DNA from: a virus
Taxonomy: Duplodnaviria > Heunggongvirae > Uroviricota > Caudoviricetes
Direction: 5' to 3' (one strand)
Virus record (IMG/VR): IMGVR_UViG_3300042561_002062
Coordinates: 85,525-149,524 of that record
DNA length: 64,000 nucleotides
Positions 1-45,807 of this stretch are shown here, piece by piece; within the stretch, counting starts at the first letter, position 1, and every line of letters begins with the position of its first letter. The position numbers and the translations under genes were made by a program. The notes beneath the pieces are model-generated. The model searched no databases. It saw only the letters and a program-made list of their open reading frames with translations, and was not told the DNA's origin.

Positions 1-479
1 TCGGTCGTAAGGTAGCTGATCTCTATTGGAAATCTTTGGAGATTATATCAAATGGTGGTTATGATTTCTTAAAACTCAACTTTAGTGAGTTTTTTGGTGA
101 TAACTCTACTCAATGGTCTTGGTATAATGTTCCACAAGATTATAGAAATTCAAGGTGGCCTCTAAATCCAAGACTTCCAAAAATGGGACTCGATCCAAAT
201 GCACCAAAAACTGAATTCAAAAACATCCGTTCTCATAAAGGTCTTGCCTGGGCAGATGGTGAGATTTATTACTCGAACTGGCCACAAATCGTATCAAAAG
301 AGGGAAATCGTAAGATGTTCCTAGAAACAAAATGGGCACATCCTTTTGAGCAGACCTGGATGAGTTATATATACCAAGAAACGATGAAAGGATCTATTAA
401 CCCAGCTATATTACTACTAACTCCTACCGAGCACAATAGATTCGATCACTATAGTAAAGATCTAAGAAAAGAAAGCTAA
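1..479 (+). CDS. 3' portion of a gene that starts upstream of the window; hypothetical protein
   Basis: ORF 36..479 is open in-frame back to nt 3 (no stop), so it is a fragment; no recognisable motif. Confidence 0.5.
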   Translation, partial: GRKVADLYWKSLEIISNGGYDFLKLNFSEFFGDNSTQWSWYNVPQDYRNSRWPLNPRLPKMGLDPNAPKTEFKNIRSHKGLAWADGEIYYSNWPQIVSKEGNRKMFLETKWAHPFEQTWMSYIYQETMKGSINPAILLLTPTEHNRFDHYSKDLRKES

Positions 480-485
480 AAAAAT

Positions 486-1466
486 ATGTACGGAAACGCC
501 TATATCGATCCGAAAGACGCTAAGAATATCCAAGAAGAAGATCCTGAAAAGTTGAAAATCTTCGAAGATAGAATATCTCGTGGAGAAAAGATAGAACCAC
601 GTGATTGGATGCCAAAGGAATACAGGCGACAACTTATTCGTATGATCGAGCAGCACGCTCACTCAGAGATTATCGGTGCTCTTCCAGAAGGCACTTGGAT
701 AACAAGAGCTCCTGGTTTTCGTAGAAAATTAGCACTTATAGCTAAAGTTCAAGATGAAGTCGGACACGCGCAGCTTCTTTACTCAGCAGCTGAAACACTC
801 GGTAAAAGCCGTGAAGAAATGATAAACGATTTGATTTCTGGCAAATCAAAATACTCAAATGTGTTCAATTATCCAGCAAAAACCTGGGCGGATGTCGCTA
901 TTATAGGATGGCTTATCGACGCTGCGGCTATTATCAACCAACTAGCAAACTCAAAGGGTTCGTATGGACCTTATTGTAGAGCTCTTGAACGGATTTGCTA
1001 TGAAGAGAGTTTTCATCTAAAACAAGGTCATTCGAATTCAGTGTATCTAGCAACCGGAACTCCTTTACAAAAACAAATGGTTCAAGAAGCTCTCAATCGT
1101 TGGTGGAAACCGGTTATTCATTTTTTTGGACCACCCGATTCAGATTCGGTTCATTCAGAGAAACTCATCAAGTGGAAGGTTAAGATGAAAACGAACGATC
1201 AGATGAGATTTCAGTTTTTTGATATGTATGTCAATAAAATTCGTGAGATCGATCTTGAAATACCCGATCCTGAGCTAGAAAAGTTACCTGATGGAACTTG
1301 GAAATATTCAGACCCTGATTGGAGTGAGTTCAAGCGTGTAATATCGGGTGACGGACCATGTAACGCAGAGAGACTCGCAGTTAGAAAAAGGGCCGAGGAA
1401 AACGGTGCCTGGGTAAGAAGAGCACTTAAAAGAGCTGATAGTTTCTACACCACACCTTTAGCGTAA
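486..1466 (+). CDS. paaA: 1,2-phenylacetyl-CoA epoxidase subunit A-like ferritin-fold di-iron oxygenase (PaaA family)
   Basis: Near-colinear match from memory to E. coli PaaA: [64 protein letters not shown]; 326 aa. Confidence 0.8.
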
Positions 1467-1484
1467 AATTTTTATATATAGAGT

Positions 1485-1760
1485 ATGAAAAATTTAATGC
1501 TCTTTGAAGATTTTCCTACCTATAGAGATACCAAAAGTGGCGTAAAGATTGTTTATTTTTCTAGTGAAGAGGTAGATAAATATGAACGTGATTGGAACTC
1601 TTTACCTATGAAATATCATCAGAATGAATTTTTTACTAAGATTTGGAATAAGATGAAAAGATCTAAAAGCCTAGCAAGAGGGCAATGGGATCAACTCAAA
1701 TTTCTCTTCGATAATGGTAAATCGATGTATGAAATGGGAGTTCTACCAAAAAAATATTAA
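1485..1760 (+). CDS. hypothetical small protein
   Basis: 91-aa ORF, no motif. Confidence 0.4.
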   Translation: MKNLMLFEDFPTYRDTKSGVKIVYFSSEEVDKYERDWNSLPMKYHQNEFFTKIWNKMKRSKSLARGQWDQLKFLFDNGKSMYEMGVLPKKY

Positions 1761-3814: not shown

Positions 3815-3886
3815 ACGGGCCTGATGTCAACGGCAGACCGTCTGACTTGCAATCAGAACGATTGGGTTCGATTCCCACAGTGTCCA
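3815..3886 (+). tRNA. tRNA-Cys (GCA)-like, possibly degenerate (acceptor stem does not pair well)
   Basis: Good anticodon arm tctga-CTTGCAA-tcaga and T arm tgggTTCGATTccca, but no convincing 7-bp acceptor; a canonical Cys(GCA) exists at 5636..5706. Confidence 0.35.
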
Positions 3887-14751: not shown

Positions 14752-15603
14752 TTATCTATTTTCTAAATGTTGTAAGAAATTTTCTATCAACTTATCTGAT
14801 CTTTTAAAGAAAGTTTCATTTTCCCAGAAATCTAAATTTGCCTCGTAGTAAGGAACACCTTTGTTCGTATAAAAAGCTTCTATAAGATTGTCAGGAACTT
14901 CGATACCCGAATATTTGCATTGAAGAACTTGTGGCATAATCGTTGCTTTCGGATCTGAATACCAACTATTTTCTTCACTCTTTGAGAAAGTATCTGGAAG
15001 TTTTCCTCGACCGTAATCATTAGCACCGGCGTCTCCGTGTATATAAAATCCGGCGAATTTGCCTGATAAATGGTTTTTGAGAAGATGATCAGATTTACCC
15101 TCAAGGGAAAGTTTCCCGGTCACCTCGGCATTTTTAATATTTCCTTCACCTAAAACTTTTTTGGCATCTTCTCTTGAGAGTGTCATATTAGCACAGACTA
15201 ATCTATCAAAGAGAGCTTTTACTTGTGAAGAAGGCGCATGCCAGTGAATAGGTGTGAATACAAGAAACCCATCAGATTTTTCTAGTTTGGTATAAACATC
15301 TTCATCATGAAGAAGATCAGGTTTTTTTGGATTCTTTTTTGAGTAGCAATCACAAGCCCAGTGACAATGATAACTTGAAGTTGAAACACATCCTTTGCAA
15401 GGTTGAACCACACTTCCTTTTTTGAAATTAACTGATAAATCGACAAGTTCGAAATCTATAGCAAAAGACCACTTGTCTAAAACATAATTGACGACTTTTC
15501 TTGTTTTGGAAATTTGACCTGGGCAACTATCTTCATCTCTGGAAGAACCTTGAAAGATTACAATATTTGGTTTGGTATCACCGATCTTTCTAATCTTTGC
15601 CAC
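14752..15603 (-). CDS. flavodoxin-fold NAD(P)H-dependent FMN reductase / iron-sulfur flavoprotein-like
   Basis: N-terminal IVIFQGSSR.. flavodoxin-like motif and Cys cluster CKGC..C..C.C. Confidence 0.5.
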   Translation of the reverse strand: MAKIRKIGDTKPNIVIFQGSSRDEDSCPGQISKTRKVVNYVLDKWSFAIDFELVDLSVNFKKGSVVQPCKGCVSTSSYHCHWACDCYSKKNPKKPDLLHDEDVYTKLEKSDGFLVFTPIHWHAPSSQVKALFDRLVCANMTLSREDAKKVLGEGNIKNAEVTGKLSLEGKSDHLLKNHLSGKFAGFYIHGDAGANDYGRGKLPDTFSKSEENSWYSDPKATIMPQVLQCKYSGIEVPDNLIEAFYTNKGVPYYEANLDFWENETFFKRSDKLIENFLQHLENR

Positions 15604-35382: not shown

Positions 35383-36264
35383 ATGAAAACATTCAACCTG
35401 GCCCATCCCGAAAAATCCGAGGTCAAATTCAAAATAAATCGATTTCCTGACGGACAGCAATCTGTTACTATTGAGGACGCTCCTGCGTTTCTTCAAGGAC
35501 ATGATATCAGAATCAAAAGCCGAATGAATAACTTCAAAGATTTGGAATTGATTATTTGTGCAAACCAAGCGCTACGTAACCTTTTTGTATCATCAGTTAG
35601 TCTTTACCTTCCATACTTCATGGGAGCTCGTTCTGACCGCCGATTCACCGAAGGTGATGTTCACTACCTTAAACAAGTCATTTGTCCTATCATCAATTCT
35701 CAGAACTTCAATAGCATCACTGTATTGGATCCTCACTCTGATGTATTAGAAGCCTGCTTGGATAACTACCAAAAGATCGACAATAGCAGAATTGTAGAGC
35801 AAGCTCTTACTGATATTGACAACAGTGATGGTGCTCAGAACAGAATTGTATTGGTCTCTCCTGATGCTGGGGCTTACAAAAAAATATTTGATGTAGCACA
35901 AAAGTTTGGTATCAATAGGATCATCACCGCCACAAAAGTTCGCGATATTAAGACTGGTAAAATTCTTCACACAGAAATCCCTACTCTAGACCAAGCCGAA
36001 GATCTGAAGTACGTAATTGTTGATGACATCTGTGACGGTGGCCGAACCTTCATTGAACTTGCTAAAGCTATTCACGGTAGCCGTCCTACTGCTAAGGTAT
36101 ACCTGGTAGTTACACATGGTATCTTTAGTAATGGATTTCTAGAACTTAGTAGAGAACTAGAAAAGATCTACTCCTCCAATAGCTATTCTGATCGTAATGA
36201 TATTGAACACGATAGTCAATACACAGTTGCCAAAGAATTCCTCAAACAATTTAACGTATTCTAA
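35383..36264 (+). CDS. divergent PRPP-synthetase homolog (candidate ADP-ribose pyrophosphokinase, Adps-like)
   Basis: PYFMGARSDRRF (Prs PYFGYARQDR-like), VIVDDICDGGRTF PRPP loop, VVTHGIFS; much more divergent than the canonical prs at 22912. Confidence 0.55.
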   Translation: MKTFNLAHPEKSEVKFKINRFPDGQQSVTIEDAPAFLQGHDIRIKSRMNNFKDLELIICANQALRNLFVSSVSLYLPYFMGARSDRRFTEGDVHYLKQVICPIINSQNFNSITVLDPHSDVLEACLDNYQKIDNSRIVEQALTDIDNSDGAQNRIVLVSPDAGAYKKIFDVAQKFGINRIITATKVRDIKTGKILHTEIPTLDQAEDLKYVIVDDICDGGRTFIELAKAIHGSRPTAKVYLVVTHGIFSNGFLELSRELEKIYSSNSYSDRNDIEHDSQYTVAKEFLKQFNVF

Positions 36265-40471: not shown

Positions 40472-41950
40472 ATGAACCCACTACTTCTTACCGATGGATA
40501 TAAGACAGGCCATCACCAACAATACCCAAGGGGCACAACACTTGTCTATTCTAACTTTACCCCACGATCGAACAAATACGGCCCGAAAGGTTGTGACAAG
40601 GTCGTTTCATTTGGTCAACAAATGGTCATGCAACAACTACACGAAGTTTTTCAAAGAGATTTCTTCTCTAGACCAAAAGATCAAGTATGTGGTGAGATGA
40701 AACAAGAACTCTCGATGTATCTAGGTATAGACTACGATGTTAGCCACTTTGAAGCACTGCACGATCTAGGCTATTTGCCTATCGCAGTTCAGGCGCTCTC
40801 TGAAGGAACGCTGGTTCCTATCAAGGTTCCAGTGTTGACGATCTACAACACTCACCCAGATTTCTACTGGCTGACCAACTACCTGGAGACTATTTTGTCT
40901 AATTTGATGTGGAAACCTATGACAAGCGCAACCATCGCCCACCAGTACAGAAAAGTTCTGACCAAGTGGATGGAAAAGACCGACAAGGAAAACGCCTGGT
41001 TTATTGATTGGCAAGGGCACGACTTCTCTATGAGAGGTATGGACTCTGCCGAAGCGGTAATCTCTTCTGGCTTGGGTCACCTTACATCTTTCTCTGGAAC
41101 CGACTCGCTGCCTGCTATTCACGGAGCCCGCAAGTATTACGGTGCTGAAGGTTTCGTCGCCGGTTCGGTGCCTGCAACCGAGCACTCGGTAATGTGTGCT
41201 GGAGGCAAGGAAGATGAAGAATCCACCTTCCGCCGCTTGCTAGAGACTTACCCCAAAGGAATTCTTTCGGTTGTATCTGATACTTGGGATCTCTGGAGAG
41301 TATGTACTCAACACGTGGTGGCTCTGAAAGAAGAGATCTTAGCCCGTGATGGTAAGTTGGTTATCCGTCCTGACTCAGGCGACCCAGCTGATATTCTTTG
41401 TGGATTAAATACTCGCTCTAAATTGGTAAGTTTGGTAGATGAAGATCATCCCTCATATAAAGGAGTTATTGAATTACTTTGGGATGTATTCGGAGGAACT
41501 GTAAACGAACAAGGTTACAAAGTTCTTGACCCACATATCGGAGCAATCTATGGTGATTCTATCACAATCGAAAGAGCCGACGAAATCTGCAAACGTTTGG
41601 AAGCCAAAGGATTCGCATCAACCAACGTGGTACTAGGTATCGGTTCATTCACTTACCAGTTCAATACTCGTGATACATTTGGTTTCGCTATGAAGGCAAC
41701 CTACTGCGAGATTAACGGTCAAGGCCAAGAGATATTCAAAGATCCTATCACGGACGATGGTACCAAAAAATCTGCAACCGGCTTGCTCTGCGTGACCAGA
41801 GACGAGTACAGCGGAGAGTACATGCTGACGGACCGAGTTGATTGGACAACCGCTCAATCAGGTGATCTCAAAACAATTTACCGTGACGGATCGTTTGAGA
41901 ACACAACTACTCTATCCCAAATACGGGAAAACTTAAAGAAAGACCTATAA
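40472..41950 (+). CDS. nadV: nicotinamide phosphoribosyltransferase family protein (NAMPT/NadV, or the homologous Namat)
   Basis: 492 aa; MNPLLLTDGYKTGHHQQYP, GHDFSMRG, GTDS, RPDSGDP: NAMPT family hallmarks. Confidence 0.8.
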   Translation: MNPLLLTDGYKTGHHQQYPRGTTLVYSNFTPRSNKYGPKGCDKVVSFGQQMVMQQLHEVFQRDFFSRPKDQVCGEMKQELSMYLGIDYDVSHFEALHDLGYLPIAVQALSEGTLVPIKVPVLTIYNTHPDFYWLTNYLETILSNLMWKPMTSATIAHQYRKVLTKWMEKTDKENAWFIDWQGHDFSMRGMDSAEAVISSGLGHLTSFSGTDSLPAIHGARKYYGAEGFVAGSVPATEHSVMCAGGKEDEESTFRRLLETYPKGILSVVSDTWDLWRVCTQHVVALKEEILARDGKLVIRPDSGDPADILCGLNTRSKLVSLVDEDHPSYKGVIELLWDVFGGTVNEQGYKVLDPHIGAIYGDSITIERADEICKRLEAKGFASTNVVLGIGSFTYQFNTRDTFGFAMKATYCEINGQGQEIFKDPITDDGTKKSATGLLCVTRDEYSGEYMLTDRVDWTTAQSGDLKTIYRDGSFENTTTLSQIRENLKKDL

Positions 41951-44784: not shown

Positions 44785-45807
44785 ATGGAAAGAAAACTAG
44801 CAACTTTAAGAAGAATAAAAAAACTGATGCCTATTGAAGGAGCAGATGCCATAGAACTAGCTCTTGTGGATGGATGGCAAGTTGTAGTAGCAAAAAATGT
44901 TGGATATCGTCAGGGAGATCTAGTTATCTACTGCGAGATAGATTCTTTTTTACCGATTAGAGAAGAGTTTGAATTTTTACGTAGAACATCTTATAAAAAA
45001 ATGGCAGATAGGGAAGGATTTCTTCTTAAAACTATTCGGCTACGCGGTCAAATTTCTCAAGGTTTGATACTTCCTATTACCGTTCTAGGTGATGATACAT
45101 CTGGATTATACGAAGGTATGGATGTTACTGAAAAATTAGGTATCGTTAAATACGAAGCACCAATACCTGCATCTTTACAAGGAAAGGTTAAGGGTAATTT
45201 TCCATCATTTATTCCTAAAACAGACGAAGAAAGAGTTCAGAATCTAGAAAAAGAATACAATGAACTAAAATTCAGTTCTAAACATCAACTTTACGTAACT
45301 GAAAAATTAGATGGTTCTTCTTATACGGTCTATCTTAATCGTGGTGAATTTGGTGTTTGCTCACGAAATCTTGAACTATTAGAAACAGAGGATAACACCT
45401 ATTGGAAAGTAACCAGAGATCTTAAAATAGAAGAAAAGTTAAGATCACTTGGTAGAAATATATCTCTACAAGGTGAGCTTATTGGTGAAGGTATCCAAGG
45501 AAATCCATACAAACTTCGTGGGCAGACAGTAAAGTTTTTCACCGGATATGATATAGATAGAGGGCAGCGTATTGGTATTCGTGATTTTTTAAATTTACTT
45601 AAAAATCTTGGGCTTGAAAGTGTTCCGGTTCTTCAAATGGGTGATTTTACCCTACCGGAAACTGTATCAGATATGCTAAAATGGGCAGAAGGTCCGTCGG
45701 TTCTTAATCCGAACTTTCCAAGAGAAGGTGTAGTAGTCCGTAGTCTTGATGGAACTGTCTCTTTCAAAGCTATATCAAATCAATTTCTTCTAAAAACAGG
45801 TGGTTAA
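44785..45807 (+). CDS. ATP-dependent RNA ligase (KxDG)
   Basis: VTEKLDGSSY motif I, 340 aa. Confidence 0.65.
   Translation: MERKLATLRRIKKLMPIEGADAIELALVDGWQVVVAKNVGYRQGDLVIYCEIDSFLPIREEFEFLRRTSYKKMADREGFLLKTIRLRGQISQGLILPITVLGDDTSGLYEGMDVTEKLGIVKYEAPIPASLQGKVKGNFPSFIPKTDEERVQNLEKEYNELKFSSKHQLYVTEKLDGSSYTVYLNRGEFGVCSRNLELLETEDNTYWKVTRDLKIEEKLRSLGRNISLQGELIGEGIQGNPYKLRGQTVKFFTGYDIDRGQRIGIRDFLNLLKNLGLESVPVLQMGDFTLPETVSDMLKWAEGPSVLNPNFPREGVVVRSLDGTVSFKAISNQFLLKTGG

Follow-up and report, generated by a model that had tools for sequence, protein, structure and literature searches.

What would a tailed phage gain from the catalytic subunit of phenylacetyl-CoA epoxidase if it encodes none of the other subunits of the complex? 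This question is raised by an open reading frame near the start of the stretch of DNA analysed here (the window), which comprises 64,000 nt of the IMG/VR record IMGVR_UViG_3300042561_002062 (Caudoviricetes; positions 85,525-149,524 of the record). All coordinates are window positions unless a contig is named, and L-numbers (L001, L002 and so on) designate related contigs or loci that were compared with the window. The gene and its immediate surroundings are as follows:

36..479, plus strand: 3' part of the upstream gene, truncated by the window start; ends 6 nt before paaA and is not a Paa gene
486..1466, plus strand: paaA, catalytic di-iron subunit of 1,2-phenylacetyl-CoA epoxidase, 326 aa, with ATG start; assigned from family, structure and residue matches
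1485..1760, plus strand: ORF of 91 aa with no assigned family, 84% conserved in L006 and L007
1894..6044, plus strand: array of 23 tRNA genes (25 by Rfam), directly 3' of paaA

A sequence-only reading had described the ORF at 486..1466 as PaaA-like along its full length, and the family and structure searches bear this out. The protein matches Pfam PF05138 (PaaA_PaaC) over residues 36-309 (E=1.8e-78; 263.8 bits against a cutoff of 28.5), the sole Pfam family at E<=1, and the NCBIfam equivalog TIGR02156 (PaaA) over the whole of its 289 positions (437.3 bits against a cutoff of 280). By contrast, the PaaC model TIGR02158 reaches 58 bits on the same ORF, below its cutoff of 133, and no NCBIfam models beyond those of PaaA and PaaC match. 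The best matches in the PDB are the PaaA proteins of E. coli and Klebsiella, with the E. coli chain 3pvr_A aligned to residues 25-314 with one gap and ~52% identity (E=1.2e-103), while PaaC chains come next at ~1e-5. No chain of the benzoyl-CoA epoxidase BoxB appears in the PDB search at E<=1e-3, where only PaaA, PaaC and one PaaC-like chain were matched, so that the protein is to be placed with PaaA and not with BoxB; the Pfam and NCBIfam models of other ferritin-like di-iron oxygenases, such as the tRNA hydroxylase MiaE, gave no match either.

The active site is complete. In E. coli PaaA the two irons are coordinated by E42, E72, H75, D126, E155 and H158, a lysine bridge is formed by K68 with E49, E72 and D126, and K103 and F108 act as substrate door and phenyl-orienting residue, respectively (PMC4498308). 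All six ligands are present in the window protein (E61, E91, H94, D145, E174 and H177), and the bridge K87/E68, the door K122 and the phenyl-orienting F127 are likewise intact. The equivalents of the ligands, of K68/E49, of K103 and of F108 are invariant among the 130 members of the clade described below and among 80 bacterial homologues. For Leu286 of the review the mapping is ambiguous, with a glutamate found at that index in the chain used. The start MYGNAYIDP and a 24-residue N-terminal extension are also found in PaaA of Bacteroidota, which indicates that the start codon is right. As judged from its sequence, the ORF is a full-length bona fide PaaA, for which epoxidation of phenylacetyl-CoA is predicted.

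The surroundings of the gene are those of a phage, as had likewise been proposed. Besides the tRNA array, the window encodes nicotinamide phosphoribosyltransferase (NAMPT), two PRPP synthetase paralogues, two Rnl-type RNA ligases, a virion structural protein, a DNA methyltransferase and endolysin-like genes, it has genes in common with IMG/VR viral contigs, and no bacterial housekeeping gene was found among 24 window ORFs checked against family libraries. No terminase, portal or clear capsid gene lies within the 64 kb, and the visible part probably belongs to a much larger genome. NAMPT and the two PRPP synthetases form an NAD salvage set (22768-23874, 35383-36264 and 40472-41950). The two RNA ligases and a phrog_850 “RNA-binding protein” form a group of RNA-repair-type genes (18114-19577 and 20167-21180, minus strand; 44785-45807, plus strand), which fit the large tRNA complement. 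The latter consists of 24 genes, namely the 23 of the array, among them three tRNA-Met(CAT) and one tRNA-Ile(TAT), and a single tRNA-Leu at 17448-17532 on the minus strand; Rfam adds weak tRNA-like matches at 2860-2958 and 3817-3886, and the same array is kept in L006. No close cultured relative was found: when the first 20 kb were compared with phages at the nucleotide level, the only matches were very short ones to tRNAs and one of 108 nt to an aminotransferase gene of Flavobacterium phages. For the host, tblastn searches with the virion protein and an RNA ligase gave only distant cyanophage and Streptomyces-phage matches, and a search of the window for the T9SS sorting domain, a Bacteroidota marker, gave nothing significant. 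The window belongs to a large phage, the hosts of which are probably freshwater Bacteroidota.

Neither neighbour of paaA is a partner subunit, in agreement with the earlier impression that the upstream partial ORF and the 91-aa ORF do not look like PaaB, PaaC or PaaE. Neither searches of Pfam, NCBIfam and PHROGs nor the HMMs from Bacteroidota proteins and hhalign revealed Paa similarity in the upstream ORF. It corresponds, at 94% identity, to the C-terminus of a Methyltransf_21/HtrL_YibB-type protein of 798 aa in L006 (L006:2962-5358), and is also 56% identical to a 357-aa protein encoded there between the 798-aa gene and paaA (L006:5384-6457). The size and position of the 91-aa ORF would suit a cryptic PaaB, but this assignment was ruled out by HMM search and hhalign: no Pfam, NCBIfam or PHROG family matches, and the hhalign probability against PaaB, PaaC, PaaD and IscA profiles is at most 1.2%. 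Synteny with the window is seen in L006 and L007, where PaaA is 93% identical and the neighbouring proteins are 76-93% identical. L006, the closest syntenic contig, shows 6.4 kb upstream of paaA, and this region holds a carbamoyltransferase and methyltransferase/glycosyltransferase-type genes, with no paa operon. Of the two observations that the sequence-only reading had named as refuting it, missing iron ligands and a full paa operon just upstream, neither was made, the latter as judged from L006. An extra ORF of 128 aa follows paaA in L006. The ORFs added or missing around paaA in L006 relative to the window indicate that the flanks differ by insertions and deletions between close relatives. 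No terminator-like site was seen between paaA and the tRNA array, and a promoter and terminator scan around paaA gave nothing above shuffles. An FMN_red gene (14752..15603) was considered as a reductase partner and rejected, as it lies 13 kb away on the opposite strand and has L006 as its only other carrier.

The absence of visible PaaB, PaaC and PaaE, which the sequence-only reading had remarked upon, holds for the entire window and beyond it. Searches by phmmer with Acinetobacter PaaB-K/Z seeds and with profile HMMs from 54-65 Bacteroidota PaaB, PaaC and PaaD proteins revealed no PaaB, PaaC, PaaD or PaaE in the 64 kb or in 16 related phage loci, the sole match to the PaaC model being the paralogous PaaA itself. 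The Acinetobacter seeds for PaaE, PaaZ, PaaF, PaaG, PaaH, PaaJ and PaaK found nothing in the same set, so that no PaaE-like reductase lies near paaA in the window or in these 16 loci. At least six further clade loci, and L168 besides, came from a metagenome scan with mostly bacterial operon loci in its output; the six clade loci were searched with the PaaB, PaaC and PaaD profiles only, and gave nothing. A pattern scan of IMG/VR with PaaB and PaaC alignments returned zero viral relatives, whereas PaaA was found there on 6 viral contigs, the longest of 295 kb. paaA is without partner genes in every phage-like locus examined (the window, L002-L010, L091-L106, L098/L099 and L168).

The bacterial relatives are organised differently. 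The order paaA-B-C(-D) is found in 65 of the 80 nearest genome loci, mostly with paaD, and a TetR (PaaR-like) regulator adjoins paaA in 51 of these 65 clusters, such that the conserved Bacteroidota module is TetR-paaA-paaB-paaC-paaD (L011-L090). Within 8 kb of paaA none of the 80 bacterial loci has a PaaE-, PaaK-, PaaH- or PaaJ-like gene, and in a few of them a PaaG/F- or PaaZ-like gene is nearby. In 13 bacterial loci an ORF of ~470 aa is inserted between paaA and paaB, and L025 has an ORF of 521 aa in a comparable position, with a T9SS sorting domain.

Where the phage gene stands among these relatives is seen from the phylogeny. The 80 closest sequences in species-representative genomes belong to Bacteroidota, Ignavibacteria and Kapaibacteria and are 71-76% identical by tblastn (up to 77% in the alignment), while over 120 metagenomic protein clusters are 78-96% identical. 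Neighbour-joining groups the window protein with those of the phage loci and the metagenome clusters in a single clade (130, later 136 sequences; 96/100 bootstrap), in which the subgroup of the window has 100/100; the clade has no genome-derived member and is nested among PaaA of Bacteroidota and Ignavibacteria. The contigs of all eight clusters that were inspected, together with four IMG/VR contigs of 112-295 kb, are low-GC and phage-like and carry paaA alone. A PHROGs scan of large ORFs from the sister loci gave almost no matches; these loci are regarded as viral on the grounds of IMG/VR membership, shared genes and gene content. The metagenome dataset that yielded the syntenic phage contig L006 (Ga0194121) is also the source of L011, a paaABCD contig and the best bacterial match. 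Other metabolic genes are seen near paaA in individual sister contigs, namely a 4HBT hot-dog thioesterase of the PaaI superfamily 7 kb upstream (L095:468-893), a TspO/MBR protein directly upstream (L096:7536-7997) and an S-adenosylhomocysteine hydrolase (L168:5790-7094).

A second type of lone PaaA, of proteobacterial kind, is encoded on two of the 6 IMG/VR contigs with PaaA (L098:9977-10912 and L099:2691-3638). These proteins are 66-71% identical to PaaA of E. coli and Acinetobacter and 51-52% identical to the window protein, and represent a separate acquisition event for this one subunit. Both contigs are AT-rich, with SegE-type GIY-YIG (homing-endonuclease-like), DUF7487 and Mom-like genes as neighbours, and in L099 paaA is flanked by a tmRNA and five tRNAs. 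PHROGs has no PaaA family, and INPHARED holds no genuine phage PaaA. The tblastn matches in the latter, two “Acinetobacter phage MD-2021a” records of 328-379 kb (CAKLQH020000001.1 and CAKLQF020000001.1; L001), were rejected as a bacterial chromosome with a complete paa operon; housekeeping genes accompany the operon at the locus, and the records are probably bacterial or chimeric. In the literature one PaaA CDS has been listed among viral contigs of a freshwater virome, with no analysis of context, partners, phylogeny or conservation (PMC9554406). Apart from this passing mention, phage PaaA is essentially undescribed.

The mislabelled Acinetobacter chromosome illustrates that bacterial DNA does get recorded as phage, and the window gene could by the same token have entered a phage contig as a piece of bacterial DNA through mis-assembly, or else be a recent, functionless passenger. 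Either is extremely improbable in view of the same gene being found in the same place in the independent assemblies L006 and L007, with phage genes on both sides. Furthermore, pairwise dN/dS within the phage clade is 0.02-0.065, that is, below 0.07, at dS values from 0.5 to saturation, and GC3 of phage paaA (20-34%) tracks the 31-35% GC of the phage genomes. Among the four bacterial paaA genes measured, GC3 is 59-64% in L011 and L025, from which the phage genes differ, and 32-35% in two low-GC bacteria. A host-derived metabolic gene that is kept in a phage by selection is by definition an auxiliary metabolic gene, and these sequence data place paaA in that class, with a presumed benefit to the phage.

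How little the protein has changed bears upon its substrate. The 80 bacterial proteins show conservation of 95% or more at 188 alignment columns; the phage clade retains 178 of these, and the remaining 10 are conservative swaps of the I/V, M/I, R/K or L/I type. The only diagnostic features of the clade are the substitutions V210, I211, S219 and T271 and a short indel near the N-terminus. Helices B and C, which form the PaaA-PaaC four-helix bundle (PMC9493321), were placed on window residues 40-109 via the positions of the iron ligands, following the helix description in the same paper. Over this stretch the consensus of the phages equals that of the operon-bearing bacteria at 69 of 70 positions; as both helices also bear iron ligands, their conservation is not specific to PaaC docking. 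Phage paaA is thus an old, maintained and compositionally adapted gene in which nothing hints at a change of substrate or of quaternary structure.

This picture argues against the suggestion of the sequence-only reading that a lone PaaA-like oxygenase in a phage had been repurposed for a nucleotide, a sugar or a tRNA base. The location of the gene, between a methyltransferase/glycosyltransferase-type gene and the 23-tRNA array, could be taken as a clue to such a substrate, and paaA has tRNAs beside it in L096 as well as in L099, of the independent lineage. However, the neighbours of paaA vary between phage lineages, and in 7 of 13 phage loci scanned there is no tRNA in the fetched locus, so that neither sugar-modification genes nor tRNA arrays are conserved neighbours of paaA in the related phages. 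tRNA arrays and auxiliary genes often share plastic regions of large phage genomes. The residues of the pocket for the CoA substrate, including the equivalents of F108 and K103, are unchanged, the protein scores as a PaaA equivalog, and the constraint on it is that of PaaA from bacterial operons. Since 178 of the 188 conserved positions and 69 of the 70 docking-helix consensus positions are retained, dN/dS is low and GC3 is phage-like, the suggestion is unsupported, and we regard repurposing as very unlikely.

What the retained subunit could do for the phage is constrained by the biochemistry of the bacterial complex. E. coli PaaA on its own is insoluble, owing to a hydrophobic interface with PaaC, and PaaA, PaaB, PaaC and PaaE are all required for epoxidation in vitro (PMC4498308; PMC9493321). 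As the E. coli subunit is neither soluble nor active by itself, and the PaaC-docking helices are unchanged in the phage protein, the latter is expected to assemble with partners from the host. We therefore consider it moderately likely that paaA is an auxiliary metabolic gene that provides a replacement catalytic subunit for a complex of host PaaB, PaaC and reductase. An ancestor of the phage group would have taken paaA from a paaABCD cluster of the Bacteroidota/Ignavibacteria type, and the captured gene would then have been kept under strong purifying selection. During infection, phage PaaA would assemble with PaaC and PaaB of the presumed host, receive electrons from the host reductase, and replace or add to the catalytic subunit, such that epoxidation of the phenylacetyl-CoA ring could go on and downstream catabolism could yield acetyl-CoA and succinyl-CoA. 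This subunit replacement is the most economical reading, since docking helices and active site are unchanged and paaB and paaC are present in the likely host group.

The consistent solitude of the gene can also be read in another way, namely that phage PaaA acts without PaaB and PaaC, for example as a BoxB-like homodimer, on phenylacetyl-CoA or a close aryl-CoA, with a generic reductase of the host as electron donor or, in sister phages, perhaps an adjacent IscA-like [2Fe-2S] protein in this role. Such an enzyme would also fit a lone catalytic subunit in at least two phage lineages, which acquired it independently and in each case took paaA only, as it would the occurrence of paaA alone in every phage-like locus examined and the lack of viral PaaB or PaaC in IMG/VR. 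PaaA and PaaC, moreover, share a fold and form a pseudo-symmetric dimer (PMC4498308). Lone chromosomal paaA genes point in the same direction: in 11 MAG loci, mostly labelled Kapaibacteria or Ignavibacteria (L017, L028, L035, L036, L039, L042, L046, L049, L062, L083 and L087), no paaB, paaC or paaD lies within 8 kb of paaA, and the gene sits in a conserved synteny of FG-GAP/ASPIC, PAP2, HmuY-like, paaA, MazG, LytR, M23 peptidase, MurA-like and TonB receptor genes, so that a lone PaaA may be viable in cells. Against this stand the insolubility of isolated E. coli PaaA and the need for PaaB, PaaC and PaaE in vitro, and had the quaternary structure changed, traces of this should be visible, whereas the interface helices are not remodelled and only four substitutions are diagnostic. 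A partner-independent oxygenase is therefore considered doubtful, and the more specific proposal of a self-sufficient aryl-CoA epoxidase module, in phages often accompanied by an A-type iron or Fe-S carrier, that works with a non-PaaE electron donor and without PaaB and PaaC slightly more doubtful still. If true, a self-sufficient PaaA would overturn the requirement for a PaaBC scaffold, and would represent a minimal aryl-CoA epoxidase with which phages reshape aromatic or signalling metabolism of the host.

In many sister phages paaA has a companion of another kind. An A-type carrier of the IscA/ErpA type (PF01521; 111-112 aa), with the usual three cysteines and assigned to phrog_17776 (“unknown function”), follows immediately 3' of paaA in at least 16 clade loci (L002-L005, L009, L010, L093-L097, L100, L101, L103, L104 and L106), and overlaps paaA by 1-4 nt in those with called genes. 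In the divergent phage-like contig L168 the order is reversed, with the carrier (L168:3811-4257) immediately upstream of paaA, so that the pair is found in at least 17 related loci with carriers of 111-148 aa. It is absent from the window, from L006-L008, L091 and L092, and from the bacterial paa loci. PaaD is needed in vivo for a reason that has been left unexplained (PMC9493321), and we infer that the carrier could help in metal loading, parallel to this need for PaaD. In the sister phages a translationally coupled carrier would help to load metal onto newly made PaaA or onto its reductase.

Returning to the replacement of a host subunit, the benefit to the phage could also be other than carbon and energy: PaaA together with host partners would lower phenylacetyl-CoA and thereby rewire host regulation, or act in detoxification. 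PaaR/PaaX-type repressors have phenylacetyl-CoA as their effector, and the compound is also a signal linked to stress and quorum responses; the frequent TetR (PaaR-like) neighbour of bacterial paaA is consistent with such a role. In other bacteria phenylacetyl-CoA has been tied to signalling and virulence, and a reverse, deoxygenase role of the complex controls the epoxide (PMC9493321). Such signalling has no support in Bacteroidota, however, and while sequence analysis cannot separate this benefit from the metabolic one, we deem it improbable.

With PaaA supplied to a host complex as the favoured reading, oxidation of the aromatic ring of phenylacetyl-CoA would be added to the metabolic steps that phages carry. 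The gene is not a single case, but belongs to a large, old and conserved clade in big freshwater phages and was acquired a second time elsewhere. That the catalytic subunit alone is carried suggests that in vivo PaaA is what limits the epoxidase or is its labile component, and the recurrent coupling to an IscA/ErpA-like protein points to metal loading as the bottleneck. Phage infection of lake Bacteroidota may thus affect the turnover of phenylalanine-derived and other aromatic carbon.

Compared with known systems, phage PaaA resembles that of E. coli and Klebsiella (PDB 3PVR, 3PW1 and 4IIT) in sequence (~52% identity) and in the identity of the six ligands and of the counterparts of K68/E49, K103 and F108, but differs from it by the lack of paaB, paaC, paaD and paaE and by extensions of 24 residues at the N-terminus and 12 residues at the C-terminus, both of which also occur in Bacteroidota. 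PaaA of Bacteroidota and Ignavibacteria (e.g. L011 and L025) is closer, with the same length and termini and 68-82% identity across the clade (at most 77% for the window), and the TetR-paaABCD lineage of these bacteria is the likely donor and host group. There, paaA stands in an operon with paaB, paaC, paaD and a regulator, whereas phage paaA has an AT-rich codon usage, forms a separate clade and carries the four diagnostic substitutions. BoxB is a di-iron aryl-CoA epoxidase of the same superfamily that is active without partners of the PaaB/C type (PMC4498308), and as such a model for the partner-independent reading. The window protein, a PaaA equivalog, has no detectable sequence match to it in the PDB search at E<=1e-3. 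Cyanophages carry psbA, which encodes the D1 subunit of a multi-subunit host complex and is under purifying selection. By analogy, phage paaA would be a further case of a lone catalytic or labile subunit of a host complex that is carried by a phage, although protein and pathway are unrelated to those of psbA.
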